A stretch of DNA of 64,000 nucleotides from Octopus sinensis (Eukaryota): positions 22,815,360 to 22,879,359 of the forward strand of contig NC_043019.1 of assembly GCF_006345805.1 (NCBI RefSeq), in the 5' to 3' direction. Below are positions 621-63,911 of the stretch, piece after piece. How positions within the stretch are numbered: the first letter of the stretch is position 1; each line of letters starts with the position of its first letter. Below the pieces are notes generated by a model that made no database searches, was not told the origin of the DNA, and saw only the letters and a program-made list of their open reading frames with translations. The translations under genes were made by a program, and so were the position numbers.

Positions 621-852
621 GGGCGGCGAGCTGGCAGAAACGTTAGCATGCCGGGTGAAATGCATAGCCGTATTTCGTCTGCCATTACATTCTGAGTTCA
701 AATTCCACCAAGGTCGACTTTGCCTTTCATCCTTTCGGGGTCGATTAAATAAGTACCAGTTATGCACTGGGGTCGATGTAATCGATTTAATCCGTTTGTC
801 TGTCCTTGTTTGTCCCCTCTATGTTTAGCCCCTTGTGGGCAATAAAGAAATA
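621..852 (+). mobile_element. tRNA-derived SINE, family A (Meta/MESC-like core), full length
   Basis: A-box-like GAGCTGGCAGAAACGTTAG and B-box GAGTTCAAATTCC; core GTCGACTTTGCCTTTCATCCTTTCGGGGTCGA...AAGTACCAG resembles the Meta core; tail AATAAAGAAATA; short AAGGGG duplication at the flanks; many near-identical copies in the window. Confidence 0.85.
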
Positions 853-4426: not shown

Positions 4427-4794
4427 GTGTGTAACATTTCTTCCAATAGTGACACATAAGCACACTCTCTCTCTCTCTGTATGTGTGTGCCACTCCTACA
4501 CCTAAAAATCCGGGCATGTATGTTATAGCTAATGAAATATTTTGCATAATATAAGAGAAAGGAGTAAAAATTGTTTGGTGTGTGTCATGGTGTCCTTTTT
4601 ATGTGCTTGCCCCTCCTCACTTTAGAACCGGACCACACTACTGGAGAGAACAGTGGTCAATATGATTCTGATTAAACAAACTATCAGGATGGTGATAGAT
4701 GCAATGTCTTGGACTCTATGTCAGCTCCATCACAGTCAAACTGCATTTCTATTGATGGCTCACATACACACAAAGCATCAGATTTGGGTGTATT

Positions 4795-5212
4795 TAAGGC
4801 GGCGAGCTGGCAGAAACGTTAGCACACCGGGCGAAATGCTTAGCGGTATTTCGTCTGCCGCAATGTTCTGAGTTCAAATTCCACTGAGGTCGACTTTGCC
4901 TTTCAGCCTTTCGGGGTCGATAAATTAAATACCAGTTACGCACTGGGGTCAATATAATCGACTTAATCCTTTGTCTGTCCTTGTTCGTCCCCTCTATGTT
5001 TAGCCCCTTGTGGGTAATAAAGAAATAGGTATTTCGTCTGCCACTATGTTCTGAGTTCAAATTCCGCCGAGGTCGACTATGCCTTTCAGCCTTCCGGGGT
5101 CGATAAAATTAAGTACCAGTTACGCACTGGGGTCAGTATAATCGACTTAATCCCTTTGTCTCTCCTTGTTCGTCCCCTCTATGTTTAGCCCCTTGTGGGC
5201 AATAAAGAAATA
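4795..5212 (+). mobile_element. Family A SINE head-to-tail dimer with 15-bp TSD
   Basis: A full unit followed by a headless unit starting at GGTATTTCGTCTGCC (5028); AGATTTGGGTGTATT is duplicated at 4780-4794 and 5213-5227. Confidence 0.9.
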
Positions 5213-5402
5213 AGATTTGGGTGTATTGATAATTATACTGACCCAGTACTTGATTGGTATTTCCTCTTATCAACAACCTCACCCTTCTCCAGAAGGATGA
5301 GCTTGTTGATAAAATCCCACCACATTGTTGTGAAAAAGGAAAAAAAAAATGATAAATATACATTCACATAATTGAAATCTTGAAGCTACAAGATAATAAT
5401 AG

Positions 5403-12137: not shown

Positions 12138-12847
12138 CATATATATATATAGACACATACAAAAATATATTTGAAAGGCTGTGACCTTCATTTCCTTCCC
12201 AAGAACATATTTTTAGCACACATGAAGCATATTTACAAAATGGCATTTACTTTAAGAAAAGCAGCAAAGGTGTCGCGGTCTAGTTAAGAAGTTTCCTTTG
12301 CAGCCACAGAATTTCAGGTTCTGTCTCATTGTGTGGCACTTTAGACAAGTACATTCTACTACAGCCCCAAGGTCAACAAGTGCCATGTAAACAAAACTAG
12401 GTAGACAGAAAATGTTTACAAGTGCACCATATACATATATATAGCAGGAGTGGCTGCTTGGTAAGTAGCTTGCTTACTGACCACATGGTTTCGGGTTCAC
12501 AGCCTTGTGAGTGGATTTGGTGGATGGAAACTGAAAAGAAACCCGTCGTATATATGTTTATGTATATACATGTGTACATGTGTGTGTTTGTGTGTCTGTG
12601 TTTGTCCCCCTCCAACATCGCTTGACAACCAATGCTGGTGTGTTTACGTCCCTGTAACTCAGCAGTTCGGCCAAAGAGACCGATAGAATAAGTACTAGGC
12701 TTACTGACTCTGAAAGGATGGAGGGTAAAGTCAACCTTGGTGAATTTGAACTCAGACGAAGTTCCACTAAGCGTTTTGCCTGGCATGCTTACAATTCTGT
12801 CAGCTAGCCACCTTTTAATAATAATAATAATAATAACAAAATAACTA

Positions 12848-13940
12848 CCATCGGATTACAGAAATACCTATTTCAGAAGCAAGGAAAACTAATACAAATA
12901 GCCACAAAACATGAACAAAACAATAAACTGTTTTCTGTCTTTAGGGAAGCTGACAAATACAAAAAAGAAATCATAGTACTTAACAACTATGAAGAAAAAG
13001 AAGAAACAACAAAAGTTGTAAAACAACTGAAATCCAAACTAAAACTGGAACAGCAACGTATCATGATAAAACGATGGCAAGAAAAGCCCCTAGGTGGCAA
13101 ATATTGGGTTAAGCTAAACAGAAAAGAAATAGACAAAGCAAAATTCCAATAATGGCTGAGAAGCTCAGGACTCAAAGCAGAGACTGAAGGATTTTAAATT
13201 CCAGCACAAGCTCAAAGCCTTCCCACCAGAAATCACCAAAAACATGTAATGGAGAGAAATACAAGTAACTGCAGAATATGTGGAGATGGAGAAGAAACAA
13301 TAAATCATATTGTCTCTGGCTGCCCAGTTTTGGCTGAGAGGGAATATATTCATAGACACCACAGAGTTGGGACCTACATACACTGGAAGCTAAGCCAACA
13401 CTATGGAATAACAACAGAAAAAATTTGGTATAGGCACACACCAGGAAAGGTCACAGAAAATGAGAAAGCAACCATACTCTGGGATATGCCAATACACACA
13501 GATAGAGAAATTAAAGCCAATGGGCCAGATATAGTTGTCAGCGATCATGAAGAAAAAATACTTTTCAATCATTGTATATATACCAACAGATGACAATATT
13601 TCTCTAAAAGAAACAGAGAAACTTTCAAAATACAAAGATCTAGAAACAGAGTTAACTCGAAGGAAAAACCTAAAAGCAGAAACAATTCTTATTATAGTAG
13701 GTACATTAGGTATAATTAAAAAACATTCAGACAAATACATAACAAAAACACCAGGACTTACAAGTATATATAACATACAGAAAATCTCACTACTAGGCAC
13801 TGCACACATCCAACATAAAACACTTTAAATTCAGTAAAAATAAAAGCATCACAACAAATCACAGCACATACCCAAGGCACACAAAGCTGTACTTGGTAGT
13901 GCAGTAAAAGTACATGATAAAAATAAGACTACTGTATGAT
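12848..13940 (+). mobile_element. 5'-truncated, disabled R4/Dong-like non-LTR retrotransposon (C-terminal CCHC knuckle and restriction-like endonuclease)
   Basis: ORFs 13249-13593 and 13535-13828 give CRICGDGEETINHIVSGC (CCHC), RHHRV, ILWD, PDIVV and EKLSKYKDL...IIVGTLG; upstream frame reads WLRSSGLKAETEG; stops and frameshifts present; flanked by (TAA)n, the known Dong target. Confidence 0.9.
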
Positions 13941-22231: not shown

Positions 22232-22845
22232 AATATAGTAAATATAGAAAGATTTTTTCAATGAGGAGGATTAATAATACCAAAACATGTCGAGATTTGT
22301 CTCCCTTACTTATTAAAATCAGATTAAATCAAAATTGGTCCAGGAACTGTTTTCTTCTCCTCACCACATAACTATTATCAGCTCAGAAGTTTTTTTCTCT
22401 CAACATTAACTATGACAAACCTTAACCGTTTTATTATACTCCATTCTACAACGTGAGGAAATGATTTATTAACTGTTCCAATGATAACAAATCAAATAAC
22501 TTTTATAGAATGTTGCCCCTGTATTTATTTTTTTCAATATGGTAAATACAGAAAGATTTTTTCAATGAGGAGGGTTAATAATACCAAAACATGTCCAGAG
22601 TTGTCTCTCTTACTTATTAAAATCAGATTAAATCAAAATTGGTCCAGGAACTAACATTTTCTTCTCCTCACCACATAACTATTATCAGCTAAGAGGTTTT
22701 TTCTCACAATATTAACTATGACAAACCTTAACCGTTTTATTATATTCCATTCTACAACATGAGGAAATGATTTATTAACTGCTCCAATGATAACAAATCA
22801 AATAGCTTTTATAGAATGTTGCCCCTGTATGTATTTTTTTCAATA
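22232..22845 (+). repeat. Two-copy tandem repeat, ~304-bp unit, each with a decayed hammerhead-like motif
   Basis: Unit starts AATATAGTAAATATAGAAAG at 22232 and AATATGGTAAATACAGAAAG at 22536; the units are highly similar throughout. Confidence 0.9.
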
Positions 22846-33139: not shown

Positions 33140-33415
33140 AACCATGGAGTTTAAAGTTCAATTTCACTGCATCAAACCTCGGACAAGTCTTCTGCTATAG
33201 CCCTGGGCTGACCAATGCCTTGTCAATGGATCTGGTAGATGGAAACTGTGATGAAGCCTGTTGCGTGTGTGTGTGTATGGAGTTTAGAGGTCAATTTCAC
33301 TGCATCAAACCTTGGACAAATCTTCTGCTATAGCCCTGGGATGACCAGTGCCTTATCAATGGATCTGGTAGATGGAAACTGTGATGAAACCTGTTGTGTG
33401 TGTTTGTGTGTGTGT
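33140..33415 (+). repeat. Tandem duplication (~130-bp unit) of a decayed family B SINE segment
   Basis: ATGGAGTTTA..TCAATTTCACTGCATCAAACC..GGATCTGGTAGATGGAAACTGTGATGAA occurs twice in tandem. Confidence 0.85.
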
Positions 33416-34676
33416 TTATCACTGTTTCTGCTGCTTGGCAACTAGTGCTTGTTTGCTACCTCTCTATAACTTAGCAGCTCACCGACTGAGATCAACAAAA
33501 AAAAAATACTATGATTGATTTGTCCAATGAACCCCTTGCAAGTCAGTGCTCCAGCATGGCCACATAGTAGTCCAATGACTGAAACAAGTAAGAGATAAAG
33601 GGTAAACGAAAAAGGAAGAGATTGTAAGCAATGCATAGCATTTGTTGTGCATCAGATGCAACAAATACATTGCAAATGTGTGCATTTGCTGCACATGTTG
33701 TACATGTTTGCATACATGTAAAACAAAAAACAAAACAAAAAAAAATACACTTCTAGTTGTAATTAGCATCTTGTTAATTGAGGCAGTTCTTTAGATTTTT
33801 GAAATTGAGAGGAAATTAACAGACTTTGCAGAGAAACTTGAGTCAGGTTAATTACATGGTTTAGTTTTATTTTTTTGTTTTGTATTTTTTTTTGGTTTTT
33901 ATGCTTTTCTTTCTTTTTCTTGCCTCCTCCCCAAAGGTGGTGGCAGTGGCAGGGTGAGGGGGTGGGATTTGGGATAATTTCACTGGATTCGTTAATGACG
34001 CATGATTGGGATGTTGGAATGATGGTAAATTAAGAGGTGCATGGCAGGGGTGGTGGTGGTGGTGGTGGTGGGGTAGAAGTGTCTGCTAAGAGCTGAAATG
34101 GTTAAAGTGGAGCCCAGCAGCAGCAACAGCAGCAGAACTACAAGGGCAAGCAAAGCTTGGGTGCAGATACACGGAAGTGAGAAATGCCTGGCATATTGGA
34201 TCGGTGAACCGTGTCCGGTACGGCTGCCAGCGTGAATAATATATTGGCATGACAGTGAGTGTGAGTGATGTGTGGTTGAGTGTGAGTGATGTGTGGTTGA
34301 GTGCGAGTGGTGTATGGTATGGCAGCAAGAATGAGAGCTGCTTGACAAATCTGACGATCTAACAAGGATCAGTGGTTATGGCACAGCAACAAGAATGAGT
34401 AGCATGTGGCAAAAGCAGCGAGGAACATGTTGGACGGCACTGCAAAGGTGAGCATGGTGCAGGCTGTAGTAGTGGTGGTGGTGGCGACAATGGTGGCGGT
34501 CGGTGATGTGTGATGAGAGTGAAGTTGTGCATGTTACCGAAGCCATGGTGGTTGAGATTGTACAAGAGCAATATGGTGATACAGTAAATAAATTACATTG
34601 TTATGACAGTAACAGTATAAGAATGGTATTATGAGGGATGGTATTATAAGGGAGGGATGTGGCAGAATGGTATCAT

Positions 34677-34909
34677 AAGGCAGCGAGCTGGCAGAATCGT
34701 TAGCATGCCAGATGAAATGCTTAGCAGTATTTCATCTGCCGCTATGCTCTGAGTTCAAATTCTGCTGAGGTTGACTTTGCCTTTCATCCTTTCGGGGTTG
34801 ATAAATTAAGTGCCAGTTACACATTGGAGTCAATGTAATCGACATAATCCCTTTGTTTTTCCTTGTTTGTCCCCTCTACATTTAGCCCCTTGTGGGCAGT
34901 AAAGAAATA
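34677..34909 (+). mobile_element. Family A SINE
   Basis: Full-length match; AGAATGGTAT(C/T)AT duplicated at the flanks. Confidence 0.85.
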
Positions 34910-40007: not shown

Positions 40008-40600
40008 TATTTCTTTACTACCCACAAGGGGCTAAACAGAGAGGGGACAAACAAAGGGATTAAGTCGATTACATCGACCCCAGTGCGTAACTGGTACTTA
40101 ATTTATCGACCCCCCCGAAAGGATGAACGGCAAAGTCGACCTCGGTGGAATTTGAACTCAGAACGTAACAGCAGATGAAATACCTATTTCTTTACTACCC
40201 ACAAGGGGCTAAACACAGAGAGGACAAACAAGGACAGATATAGGTATTAAGTCGATTACATCGACCCCAGTGCGTAACTGGTACTTAATTTATCGACCCC
40301 GAAAGGATGAAAGGCAAAGTCGACCTCGGCGGAATTTGAACTCAGAACGTAACGGCAGACGAAATACCTATTTCTTTATTACCCACAAGGGGCTAAACAT
40401 AGAGGAGACAAACATGGACAGACATAGGTATTAAGTCGATTATATCGACCCCAGTGCTTAACTGGTACTTAATTTATCGACCCCGAAAGGATGAAAGGCA
40501 AAGTCGACCTCGGCGGAATTTGAACTCAGAACGTAACGGCAGAAGAAATACCGCTAGTCATTTCACCCAGCGTGCTAAAGTTTCTGCCAGCTCGCCGCCT
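40008..40600 (-). mobile_element. Family A SINE head-to-tail trimer
   Basis: One head (40530-40600) and three bodies; junction GAAATACCTATTTC at 40177-40190 and 40361-40374. Confidence 0.9.
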
Positions 40601-41039
40601 TTTGACAAGACCCTTCAAGGCAGTGCTCCAGTATGGCCACAGTCTAATAACTGAAACAAGCAAAAGAGAGTCATTGACACACATAACCTCTTTCCTTTTA
40701 CACATGACTTTTGATGATTAAATAGACAACATACACACAAACAATGTTGTTGATCTCCAAATAAGTTCTTACCCCAGTATTGTTCCTGGGAGCTAAATAT
40801 AGCGTCATATACATAACAAACAGAAGCTCATTGACCTTGAAGCTGTGTAAATTACGCACAACTTAAAATAGGCAACTAGGAAAGAAGTTTGCATCAAAAC
40901 AGTAGTAAAAAGGAATACTAAAAGCAAACTACTTTTCATACTATATTCAACGATTAATTGGTTCTCCAATTTTTATTATGCACACTAAATATGTGTATAG
41001 GATTACCCACAAATTCTGAATTTTCGTTTATATATGCTG

Positions 41040-45402: not shown

Positions 45403-47409
45403 GGGGCTACAAAGATAGAATTAGAAAAAGCTATAAGAGATATAAATGTGTGACCTATACCAGTACTAATCACTCACTAACAACAGCATTGTGAAAATAT
45501 CGAACATACCACTGTAGAAAAGCACTTCCGTTATATTTCCAAAACTTCCCGCCATAAACAGGCAGTTTATCAATAAAAGAAAATCAAGCAAAAAACGTAA
45601 CAAAAGATATCAATAATCAAAAATCAAACCTAAAGCTTCTAAACTATTGTTTTATGCCATTTAGCCATGACGCATTACTGTTTTGGTTACCTTTTGGTTA
45701 TTTTGTGAATTAACAATTAGAAACACAAATGAAACATAACTAGACTATGGCCACCAGTAAAAAACATGTTGCACAGCTTAGTGGTTAAATCCTTTTGTTT
45801 TGGTAGAATTTCCCTTGAAAAATTATTGCTCATTTTATTTATTTATATATTTATACTGTGAAAGCGCATGGCTTGGTGGTTAAGGTATTCGGCTTATGGT
45901 TGTAAGGTCCTGCGTTCAATTCTTGGTGGTATATCATGTCCTTGAGCAAGACACTTCATTCCACATTGTTCCAGTTCATCCGGTTGGCAAAATCAGTTGC
46001 ACCTGTAATCCCAAGAGCCAACCTTGTCACATTTTGTGTCATGCTGAATCTCTCTGAGAACTATGTTAAACGTACATGTCTGTGGAATACACAGCCACTT
46101 GCACATTAATTTCATGAGCAGGCTGTTCTGTTGATTGGATCAACTGGAACACTCATCGTCAATCCCAATGAAGTCCCAGTGTATTTACATACTGTTCCTT
46201 CCACTTAGACATAGGGTCTCTTCTCCTTTCTGTTCTTTTTCTGTCTTGCAGTATTGTTAAGCTGTTGGCTGGACTGCTACCTTATTTGCTCTGAGTTCAA
46301 ATCCTCCTGAGGTCATCTTTACATTTTATCCTCTCAGGGCCAATAAGAAAAAAAACTTAGTGACCTCACTAGTGCTGGTATCACAAAAAACAAAAGCTCC
46401 CAGTACACTCTGTACAGTGGTTGGTGAGCTGGCAGAAACGTTAGCACACCAGGCGAAATGCTTTGCGGTATTTCGTCTGCCACTACTTTCTGAGTTCAAA
46501 TTCCGCCAAGGTCGACTTTGCCTTTCATCTGTTCGGGGTCGATTAAATAAGTACCAGTTACACACTGGGGTCGATATAATTGACTTAATCCGTTTGTCTG
46601 TCCTTGTTTGTCCCTTCTGTGTTTAGCCCCTTGAGGATAGTAAAGAAATAGGTTGGTGTTAGGAAGGGCATCCAGCTGTAGAAACCAAGCCAAAATTGAC
46701 ATTGGAGCTTGACACAGCGCTGTGGCTCACTGGATCCTGTCAAACTACTCAGCCCATGCCAGTATGGAACAAGGACATTAAAAGATTTTAATAATAATAA
46801 TGAGCATCATCATCATTGCATTCAATCATTTCTATTGAGAAAGTATGATTTCCATATCAAGAAAAAAAAAAAGTTGATGCATTTTTTTTTTAAACATCAG
46901 TTTTTGTTTTCTAGGTTCCATGTTTCTACCATTGAATTCCCTGAACAAAAAAATGTAAATGAATATATAAATACATAAAACTATAACAAAACAACAGGAT
47001 TTAACCACTAAGCTGTGCAACATGTTTGTTACTGGTGGTCATAGCCTAGTTATGTTTCATTTGTGTTTCTAATTGTTAATTCACAAAATAACCAAAAGGT
47101 AACCAAAAAAGTAATGTGTCACGGCTAAATGGCAAAAAACAATAGTTTGGAAGTTTTAGGTTTGATTTTTGATTATTGATATCTTTTGTTGTTTTTTTAT
47201 ATTTTTTGCTTGATTTTCTTTTATTGCTAAACTGCTTGTTTGTGGCGGGAAGTTTTGGAAATATAACGGAAGTGCTTTTCTACAGTGGTATGTTCGATAT
47301 TTTCACAATGCTTCACATTGCTGTTATTAGTGAGTGATTAGTACTGGTATAGGTCACACATTTATACCTCTTCTAGCTTTCTCTAATTCTATCTTTATAG
47401 CCCTCTCTT

Positions 47410-54686: not shown

Positions 54687-55230
54687 GATTATTCTGTCAA
54701 ATGTGATGCTTGCTTATTCACCTTGTTTTGAATTAATCATCTCATAATTTCAAGATTTCAAATAATGTAATTGTTTATTTCTAGAACGACACTGTAGGGT
54801 GGGTGTGAGAAGCCAAATGTGCCCAGTTTGAACATAAAACAGGTAGAAAACTTGGGCTAGATAAGGCCGGTTCAAACACTAATGGTTTAAAGAATAGATT
54901 GCAGAATTTTTGACAGCTATTTCTAGCAAGTTAAACAACAAACCACGTAGGGATCCCTTTGTTAGCAGTGAAAACATTGTCGATAGTGTTGGTGATTGAT
55001 GCTGGTACCTGTATAGTGGGAGGATGTTATTTAGCTCTGACCCAGGAGATAACCTATGACCAAAGGTGTTCCAGCAATGACCACCTCATCCTTTTTATCT
55101 TCCTATATTTAACATTTTAGCATTTAAAGCAGCCATATACGGTCCAAATATTCTCTGCTTGTTTTATTTTCAACCCAGATCTGGGCCCTCATACCTACCC
55201 TACAATGTTGATCTAAACGTAAACAATCAC

Positions 55231-55444
55231 GGCGAGCTGGTAGAATCGTTAGCACGCCGGGCGAAATGCTTAGCAGTATTTCGTCTGCGGTTACGTTCTG
55301 GGTTCAAATTCCGCCGAGGTCGACTTTGCCTTTCATCCTTTCGGGGTTGATTAAATAAGTACCAGTTACGCACTGGGGTCAATATAATCGACTTAATCCG
55401 TTTGTCCCCTCTGTGTTTAGCCCCTTGTGGGTAGTAAAGAAATA
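55231..55444 (+). mobile_element. Family A SINE nested in a piggyBac MITE (~55110-55517)
   Basis: 12-bp TSD GTAAACAATCAC at 55219-55230 and 55445-55456. Confidence 0.88.
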
Positions 55445-60903: not shown

Positions 60904-62220
60904 TTTTTCTCTCTCTCACATACATACACACACGCTAGCCGCCTCGAGCCATCACTATACACAAGTGTTGTTTAGATCTGGGCTTAAGCTTGCAGATTCA
61001 AAAGTGTTCCAGTCGTGACCACCTCATCTTTTATTCATATACCGTTATCCTTAACTACATTAGTCTATGTGACCTTCATTTGTTTAAAATAAAATAAAAC
61101 GGTAGCATATCGTCAGAGCAGTCGTGTGGTTCCAGCCGTCACTATCTCGTTCGATGCATTGGATAAGTTCATAATTTTGAAAGAAAACTAATTGTGCTTC
61201 GTATATTAGCTGTTAATTGTTCGAAGTCTTCAATTACACATTCGATACACTTGAAGAAATTTAACAGTCATGCTTCACCCTACAGTTAACAAGGAATGTA
61301 ATTAAGACAATTTTTAGTTCAAATAGCACGGGATAGTCAGGGATGGTATGTTTTATCGTATCTAAACTAGACTCTTACTATCCACTAGTTTAACTTTTGT
61401 CAAAGTAAAAAATATTTTGACTACAATTGGGACCCAAGAAATGAACCAGCATAGAAAACATTATCTTTTAACTTTTGTTTCACGGGTTTGTGGCCAAACT
61501 GGGGCACTGCTGTGAAGGATTTTAGCCGAACACATCGATCCGAGTACTTAATTTTTAAAAGTCCGTTGATTATTCGCTCAAAGGGAATTCTCCCAAGATG
61601 CTGTGCAGTAGGACTGAAACTGAAACCTTATGGTTGCAAAGCTAGCTTCGTAACCACACACAAATATTAAAAAGAAAAATTTTTTAAAGGCGAGATGGTC
61701 AAGGTAAGAACGCCTTTGATTATAGAGTCGGTGATGAGAGCTGAGCTGAAGCTAAATTGAGGGGAGGGTGCCCCATCATCATTGTTGTCGCTGCTGTTGC
61801 ATTCAACAGATGTAGCATATGCCCACATTGCCCTCTACTCATACATCACGGCTTTCATAATACAATGTTGCCACGTGGTCGGCCATTAACCCTGCTCACA
61901 CCACCTCCGGTAGTGAGATTAGAATCCCTAGGCAGAATCCGAGCCGAAACAAATAGCGCAAGACATCCCTGTCCGACACTGACAATTTACCCTAATCCAC
62001 TGCCCTTGAATAGTACTTTATTTTATGGACCCCCAAAAGGATAAAAAGCGGAAGTTGATCCCAAGATGATTTGAATTCAGGGTGCACAGAACTGGAAATA
62101 AATATTGGTTTCAAATTCTTGTACAAAGCCAGTAGTTGTACCGAACCCCAGTGCTCGACTGGTACTTACTTTATCGACCCCAGAAGGATGAACTCAGACA
62201 GTAAAGACGGGCGAAATACC

Positions 62221-62452
62221 TATTTCTTTACAACCCACAAGGGGCTAAACACAGAGAGGACAAACAAGAGCAGACAAAGGGATTAAGTCGATTATATCGA
62301 CCCCAGTGCGTAACTGGTACTTATTTAATCGACCCCGAAAGGATGAAAGGCAAAGTCGACCTCGGCGGAATTTGAACTCAGAACGTAGCGGCAGACGAAA
62401 TACCGCTAAGCATTTCGCCCGGCTTACTAACGTTTCTGCCAGCTCGCCGCCT
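62221..62452 (-). mobile_element. Family A SINE (young) joined at its tail to a degenerate second body
   Basis: Junction GAAATACCTATTTC at 62213-62226. Confidence 0.85.
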
Positions 62453-62713
62453 TAGAACAGGAAATAAATATTGCAAAATATTTCTATCCGACGCTCTTCA
62501 CGACTCTGTTAATCCGCCGATGGCAGGAAAAGTATAGCCTCGCTCGAGACACACTACCGCCCCTCGCCTCACTCAAGCAACGCAACAGGGTTTTGAACTA
62601 TATGACAAATACAAACTTAAAGGTCCTGTATGGAGAGATATCACAGCAGCACACACATACGATTAGTTTTACTGTTTAAATTAATCATTGTTGCTATCAC
62701 GACAATGTAAACA

Positions 62714-63603: not shown

Positions 63604-63911
63604 GCCATTTTTTGTATAATCATTCGTTCAGTTTATATTGTCCCCTATTTGTTAGCCCCTTGTGGGTAATAAAAAAAAAATCATCTCTTCGCTCGCGTTG
63701 GCGCTCACGTTGAACAACACTGCAACCTAGCAGCTCACAGCGGATTCTTAACCCGCTCTAACTTTACCCGTTATCTCCAGAGGTAATGTACCTCTCGCGA
63801 ACGGAGCTAACGAACTACGCGCTGACATAGAGATGGTCGCCGGGAGCAAACCCCATGAAATGAGAACCAAATAAACAACCACTGAATTGCACTCGCTTGT
63901 AAGCCTCTTTT

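Follow-up and report, generated by a model that had tools for sequence, protein, structure and literature searches.

Nested self-insertion of a SINE at fixed bases in Octopus sinensis, with a probable part for read-through RNA in the choice of target

Why should the tail of one SINE be joined, again and again, to the same internal base of the next? The question is raised by a SINE dimer in a 64,000-nucleotide stretch of the Octopus sinensis genome (NC_043019.1, positions 22,815,360 to 22,879,359), the whole of which is called the window below. A preliminary description of this DNA had noted that the joint is an inverted repeat and had offered three causes: a structure-guided template jump, reverse transcription of a circularised headless RNA, and site-specific self-insertion.

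The joint in the window and in the genome

The 14-mer GAAATAGGTATTTC was found without a mismatch at all four places given earlier, 5022-5035 (+), 40177-40190 (-), 40361-40374 (-) and 62213-62226 (-). With up to two mismatches it occurs 10 times in the window, a number attained in 0 of 100 shuffles (mean 0.89). A fifth exact copy at 12861-12874, absent from the earlier list, was rejected as a SINE junction, its flanks being without SINE tail or body. The features of the SINE loci are as follows.

4780..4794, +, 5' target-site duplication of the dimer, starting AGA, the motif class that goes with C222 in the tail
4795..4844, +, SINE head, positions 1-50, 5' arm and loop of the predicted head hairpin
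4812, +, position 18, the second insertion site, within the dimer's head
4845, +, landing site, first base 3' of the predicted hairpin loop
4845..5027, +, unit 1, positions 51-234, tail base T222
4990..5027, +, 3' terminal stretch common to a LINE provisionally of L1/Tx1 type and an ORF1-only element
5022..5035, +, tail-to-position-51 junction
5028..5212, +, unit 2, positions 51-234, tail base C222, with two genome-unique variants in common with unit 1; likely the resident copy of the dimer
5213..5227, +, 3' target-site duplication of the dimer
40008..40601, -, trimer of a head and three units with two position-51 junctions, units 1 and 2 sharing private variants
62221..62454, -, young family-A head and unit of the 62 kb composite
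62108..62220, -, degraded body and tail of the resident copy, a member of the older SINE family B3, with the joint at position 51
62089..62107, -, 3' copy of a 19-bp duplication (1 mismatch) that brackets the 62 kb composite, the 5' copy being 62455-62473
622..852, +, family-A monomer
34676..34909, +, family-A monomer with tail C222 and a duplication starting AGAAT
46423..46650, +, family-A monomer with GGTT directly after it
55230..55444, +, family-A monomer with a 12-bp duplication

As had been claimed, the dimer lies within a single 15-bp duplication, whose copies are perfect, and the two variants common to its units are private: the pair occurs twice in the 2.72-Gb genome, both times in this dimer. 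The statement that three loci share one junction needs qualification, as the joint is the same but the loci are unlike, the second unit at 62 kb belonging to an older family with another tail. The proposed check that one duplication surrounds each array gave a divided answer: the 4795 dimer and the 62 kb composite have one, whereas a duplication around the trimer was looked for and none was found. Elsewhere in the window there are a lone tail-only fragment with a poly(A) end and no SINE body upstream (63638-63680), two tandem repeats of two copies each, with periods of 306 (22232-22845) and 133 (33144-33409), and an old SINE head on the minus strand that is cut off at about position 124 and fused directly to another repeat family (12500-12814).

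The SINE of family A, called SINE A, has 234 bases and at least 116,979 tails in the genome; its terminal ~35 bases are 82% identical to a LINE end. Stretches of its head look A- and B-box-like by eye, the A-box-like one lying near 4808-4820 in the dimer, and in its central domain the element may resemble the Nin/Deu-domain SINE superfamily. ARAGORN found no tRNA in the window, and Rfam likewise gave none in 4700-5300. A head variant, G46/C51, which lacks the GGTA site of the SINE, is carried by 29 of 75 A monomers. Variable target-site duplications, mostly of 14-18 bases, were observed at 93 of 176 terminal tails; the remaining 83 are without one under the scoring used.

A genome-wide count of the exact 20-base joint gave 35,298, and the reversed control gave 0. 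When re-entry was left free over positions ~42 to 72, 32,263 matches were obtained, and a hand count placed 100 of the 100 among the matches listed at position 51, two of them after an extra 6-base repeat of the tail. Joints near the start of the head gave 1,471 matches, with 99 of 100 among the matches listed at position 18 (hand count). In an 864 kb sample that was not centred on junctions (overlapping 3-kb loci removed, 67 kept), 84 of 183 A tails (46%) continue into a SINE, 67 at position 51, 16 at position 18 and 1 at position 50; as 600 of the 864 kb are contiguous blocks from regions rich in position-18 matches, the 51:18 ratio may be too low. There are therefore two fixed sites, only one of which has a complement of the tail. 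The fixed breakpoint of the preliminary description thus holds in a widened form, 83 of the 84 joints using one of two bases, and the re-entry positions, which it had proposed to plot genome-wide, are narrowly set, at 51 with a second site at 18.

From joint to nested unit

The joint is indeed an inverted repeat as sequence; a fold is not predicted, the value for the 14-mer being 0 kcal/mol. The head, by prediction, forms a hairpin of 13 pairs (-15.6 kcal/mol, z -4.1) with a loop that ends just before base 51, and the re-entry bases are paired with GAAAUG of the head inside it. The joint is an inverted repeat because the SINE tail resembles the 5' arm of this hairpin.

The tail might nevertheless pair with the re-entry site and so direct a template jump, or reverse transcription might run round and round a circular RNA without a head. 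A real 6-base complement lying 2 bases off the joint, the private variants common to the units of the 4795 dimer and the homogeneity of long arrays would all suit such a route. Complementarity as the cause, however, fails on several counts: the joint has no stable fold and the re-entry bases are, by prediction, already paired in the head; position 18 is without a tail complement; a LINE ending in GAAATT uses the same base; and other motifs are the targets of elements that share this tail end. A circular headless RNA fares no better: of 312 arrays, 263 begin within bases 1-40, and those that begin at positions 51-60 number only 4, one of them behind a LINE tail and none with a clean headless start. 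No peak of headless starts at position 51 was found in the 312 arrays, which argues against a circle or a cut RNA, either of which predicts such a peak. An Rfam scan of 4700-5300 identified neither a ribozyme nor any further RNA family, its two hits being due to chance (E 4.7 and 5.3), and a retrozyme or circular-RNA retroelement was rejected for want of a ribozyme and of near-identical headless repeats from a single template. Array units differ in age and family, and composites that read old head, young unit and old body do not agree with a template jump as the main route. This whole explanation is largely refuted, and we give it very little probability.

Those composites reveal what happened instead. 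The genome has 23 matches in which an old-family unit directly follows an A tail, and all were examined. At four loci (L144, L148, L151 and L193) an old head runs to position 61, 61, 65 and 73, respectively, and is followed by a full young A and then by the old body from position 51; the first three start at position 1, and the fourth (2-73) lay outside the 23-match set. This arrangement is therefore that of an ordinary insertion with SINE bases as the target duplication. Among the 23, 3 were unscored and 4 more were without a head, which left 16 composites; measured against the A consensus after masking of 20 diagnostic sites, a step that may leave residual family differences, their divergence is 0.133 for the head, 0.033 for the inner unit and 0.119 for the last unit. 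The head is more diverged than the inner unit in 16 of 16, and the old-family base T22 is present in 12 of the 16 heads. Apart from the nestings with two heads, most of the 23 have a single head, and it is an old one. An old head on single-headed composites means, therefore, that the incoming 5' end merged with the resident head, and a headless unit of 184 bases thereby arises without any circle. Young A units are nested at a fixed base inside copies of the same and of older SINE families, and we hold this with high confidence; site-specific self-insertion is thus the one of the three offered causes that has been borne out.

Comparison of the units of 41 A|A dimers showed a difference of 0.097 within dimers and 0.102 between them. 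The expectation that units are closer inside an array than to other copies is therefore not satisfied for most dimers; unusually close units were seen in 7 of the 41, the 4795 dimer of the window among them, and 28 of the 41 have no shared private variant. As the variant pair of the 4795 dimer occurs only in its two units, it arose at that locus, and the likeliest reading is that one unit was copied onto its neighbour once insertion had taken place, which is not typical of dimers. In four arrays with at least 5 A units, the mean neighbour distance is 0.041 (0.016-0.053) as against 0.096 in dimers, so that long homogenised arrays of the kind called SINE-derived satellites are represented by these four longest arrays only, and not by most dimers. 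In an 11-segment array (L212, G000 C1 193.88 Mb), the inner units are internally deleted and a shortened satellite unit recurs with a period of ~94 bases. At another locus (L069, near 937) two SINE bodies lie in inverted orientation at one spot.

The uniform long arrays and the genome-unique variant pair at 4795 are what would be expected if DNA-level duplication or unequal exchange alone had built the multimers, as proposed for the SINE satellites of squamates (PMC10702118). Such a process leaves unexplained the dimers without a common private variant, the motif bias of ordinary insertions (see below) and the joints between families at one base. The nested cases refute it as the only origin, and in that role it is the least probable of the explanations weighed here; as a later step that lengthens arrays it stands.

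A further possibility is that a few master multimers were retroposed whole, reverse transcription from an inner tail giving the monomers and the motif bias. One duplication often encloses an entire array, chains of a T222 unit, a C222 unit and then a position-18 B1 unit recur, B1 tails are equally frequent at the end of multimers and of monomers (9 each), and 19 of the 41 A|A dimers finish with a unit of the A203/C222 type. Among 62 unselected dimers, 42 have a second body more diverged than the first and 14 a less diverged one (p=1e-4), in favour of nesting. In A|A dimers alone, however, this gradient is weak (25:12, p=0.11), and its weakness, together with the A203/C222 last units, fits re-copied master dimers. 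On the other side, the 41 dimers comprise 19 haplotype pairs, many arrays finish with the tail of another family (B1, B2, B3), and last units come from four families, so that descent of the multimers from one dimeric master, which the preliminary description had named as the finding that would speak against it, is not what was observed. A Mantel test of first- against second-unit similarity was not significant (rho 0.05, p=0.098), and neither the old-young-old composites nor the four nestings that keep both heads are accounted for. The correlation of head and body age in the 62 unselected dimers is weak (rho 0.13 for body 1, 0.24 for body 2). Master multimers as the general explanation are accordingly improbable, while whole-multimer retroposition probably adds a share even where nested insertion is the rule.

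Enzyme and RNA as probable factors in the choice of target

The tail of the SINE is common to LINEs that carry an endonuclease-like ORF and a reverse transcriptase (RVT_1, Pfam 1e-26), the best solved-structure match being human L1 ORF2. A zf-CCHC domain was found in ORF1-only relatives and zf-RVT in a sister LINE lineage, and homologues carry PF03372, PF00078 and PF13966. The domains by which the Tx1 clade is recognised, CCHC in ORF1 and an AP-type endonuclease, reverse transcriptase and C-terminal zinc finger in ORF2, are all represented, and the label L1/Tx1-type is used provisionally. A young LINE lineage with this tail has SINE position 51 next in 64 of 66 cases among the matches listed (hand count), the base there being C51 in 43 and G51 in 21. 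From the shared tail, the position-51 lineage may be taken as the putative source of the enzyme that mobilises SINE A.

Several observations on these relatives are recorded here. The position-51 LINE lands more often on the G46/C51 head variant, even though this variant is without the GGTA site. Four of four full-length copies of this LINE (L306-L309, G000 C1) have SINE 1-66 in front and begin after base 66; bases 62-68 occur in two spellings, two copies each, and in L306 and L309 the spelling is not that of the copy downstream, as though SINE-head bases had been carried at the 5' end of the LINE RNA. The ORF1-only element with the SINE tail mostly has AGAAAC next and is stacked in 1.75-kb arrays, head-to-tail with up to 7 listed copies, some of which end in SINE position 18 (L180, L264-L293). 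Related tails have motifs of their own, namely TATC repeats, GTG, ACATG (5/5) and GGATG. A related-tail LINE lies in (TATC)n microsatellites (L071, L100, L119, L195, L203, L213, L232, L254-L263), with zf-RVT in L232; it was dropped as a direct partner, the tail being in common but not the target.

The target motifs of ordinary insertions were sorted by the first six bases of the 93 duplications, which gave 32 of the GGTA class, 15 of AGAA, 36 of TATA and 10 of none. GGTA corresponds to SINE position 51 and AGAA to position 18. In the upstream, target-derived copy, 68 of the 93 fit a motif at 4 of 5 bases, as against a background of 9%, and the information is confined to bases +1 to +5, with little upstream of the duplication. 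The motif goes with the lineage of the tail: in ordinary insertions T222 is found with GGT 25:1 and C222 with AGA 14:1 (p=6e-9), and the T222:C222 ratio is 157:6 at position-51 junctions and 2:23 at position-18 junctions. Four of the 176 terminal tails lie in the antisense strand of SINE-like sequence, each at a GGTA or GATA, from which it follows that the short motif alone draws insertions, far less often than position 51 does.

A trace of the template was sought in the two copies of each duplication. When 70 duplications were anchored from base 6 onward, with one of more than 3 mismatches set aside, bases 1-5 held 34 mismatches in 350, and where these bases differ the copy beside the 3' end of the SINE keeps the motif base 22 times as against 2. 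In a strict set of 54 duplications, the 3' copy fits the motif better at 10 loci and the 5' copy at 0, with 6 ties (p=0.002). Mutations acquired after insertion would strike both copies alike; bases 1-5 were therefore likely present in the template RNA. The junctions agree: GG begins 60 of 67 and CG 0 of 67, though C51 is present in 31 of 97 A heads, and in old-type units T53 stands at 342:23 in junctions as against 19:81 in heads, the former ratio being an upper bound because some T53 junctions may be mutated B1 units.

Could the enzymes alone account for all this? The site would then be set only by the endonucleases of several Tx1-type LINEs, one per tail variant, and any RNA pairing would be incidental. 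The 64 of 66 placements at position 51 together with the use of both C51 and G51 favour a real nicking preference at this base, and this makes it the strongest rival; the full-length LINE copies behind SINE 1-66, the separate motifs of the related tails, the position of base 51 at the border of the predicted hairpin loop and the endonuclease-set targets that are frequent in Tx1 families (PMC4494074) all point the same way. Yet this LINE uses C51 more often than G51 while none of the 67 SINE junctions starts with CG, and an enzyme acting on DNA leaves the 10:0 better fit of the 3' copy unexplained. There is also little information upstream of the duplication, and the ORF1-only element, which has T222 and targets AGAA, indicates that base 222 itself does not select the enzyme. 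The G-only junctions of the SINE and the asymmetry of the duplications thus call for an RNA term besides the nicking preference, and endonucleases alone are an unlikely, though the least unlikely, alternative.

We consider it probable, from these sequence patterns, that target choice is steered by read-through RNA bases past the SINE tail. Besides the strict placement of the LINE, it counts against steering that 12 of 67 unselected dimers carry the G46/C51 head without a GGTA site, and that homology ends at about base +5/+6 in non-SINE targets. True inheritance of the motif from each landing site is less certain than steering, and we put it at a little under an even chance, as a fixed 3' motif in a few master copies would yield the same asymmetry.

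The following course of events is proposed, and as a whole, nested self-insertion with read-through RNA pairing and a borrowed enzyme of L1/Tx1 type, we judge it the likely explanation. The SINE RNA would extend a few bases past its tail into the previous landing site, and these extra bases would pair with the nicked target and prime reverse transcription by the borrowed enzyme. Insertion at position 51 produces the tail-to-body joint and a duplication of 11-23 bases from SINE position 51 onward. In most cases the head of the resident absorbs the incoming 5' end, presumably through homology and either at integration or in a subsequent deletion, so that one head and a headless unit of 184 bases remain. 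A copy ahead of GGTAT, AGAAA or TATAT may pass its motif on through the read-through transcript, by which once-nested copies would keep finding SINEs. Some arrays are made longer and more uniform by duplication or conversion among adjacent units, as the long ones demonstrate, and some multimers were likely re-copied whole.

The most general form of the proposal is that the SINE, the LINE and the ORF1-only relatives share a short heritable RNA guide which lies outside the element, is taken up from the previous landing site through read-through transcription and overwrites mismatched target bases, one lineage having become self-homing and having seeded tens of thousands of proto-satellites; this we advance tentatively, as not quite evenly likely. 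Through targeted nesting followed by local amplification, a dispersed retroposon can pass directly into tandem repeats, on the scale of nearly half of all copies in one SINE family. If read-through RNA does steer, the target preference of a non-LTR element would be heritable without a change of protein and reprogrammable by five bases, and fast target switching of Tx1-type elements would become directly testable, the asymmetry of the duplications being a mark for which any genome can be scored. Repeat libraries will miscall such composites as separate families and misdate them.

Relation to known systems

Full-text searches of the literature listed no account of this system, and repeat databases (Repbase/Dfam) or supplements may hold one; in the part of PMC13282606 consulted, 'nested' and 'satellite' are not mentioned, and PMC4758252 and PMC6007223 provided background only. 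The parts of the system, namely headless multimers, a self-insertion hotspot, target sharing by Tx1 elements and SINE satellites, have published precedents. The nearest in form are the TSD1-(SINE)n-TSD1 arrays of a mollusc, the blood clam Scapharca broughtonii (PMC11481361), multimers of tRNA-type SINEs for which unequal recombination was suggested. They share with the present arrays one full head, repeated head-truncated units, one duplication and some mixing of families. They differ in that their inner units lose the tail too, whereas the tails are whole here, and in that they make up ~3% of copies, whereas 46% of the A tails in our sample are joints and nesting occurs at two bases.

Self-insertion at one base and in the sense orientation has been reported for Alu, with a hotspot at position 133 that was explained by pairing of the RNA tail with the target (PMC2836564). 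In Alu a fixed poly(A) meets an A-rich linker and both copies remain whole; SINE A, in contrast, is without poly(A), has three motifs linked to lineages and usually has its incoming head merged with that of the resident. The crocodilian SINEU and its partner Tx1-Mar share a common target in another repeat and insert in tandem (PMC4494074), the target being Mariner and the targeting ascribed to the endonuclease, whereas here the target is the SINE itself.

With respect to priming, RNA 3' bases that resemble the target improve its accuracy in R1Bm and SART1Bm, R1Bm being said to need downstream target sequence (PMC7265360), and 4-6 matched bases suffice for L1 (PMC3649969), which is the length of the motif here. 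These elements are autonomous or have a fixed tail and one target, and the parts of these two papers that were consulted describe no heritable, switchable motif of a SINE. In squamates, SINE-derived satellites consist of tandem partial SINEs with the longer arrays more uniform (PMC10702118); the long arrays described here have the same uniformity, and differ in that seeding, ascribed to recombination in squamates, is by targeted insertion.
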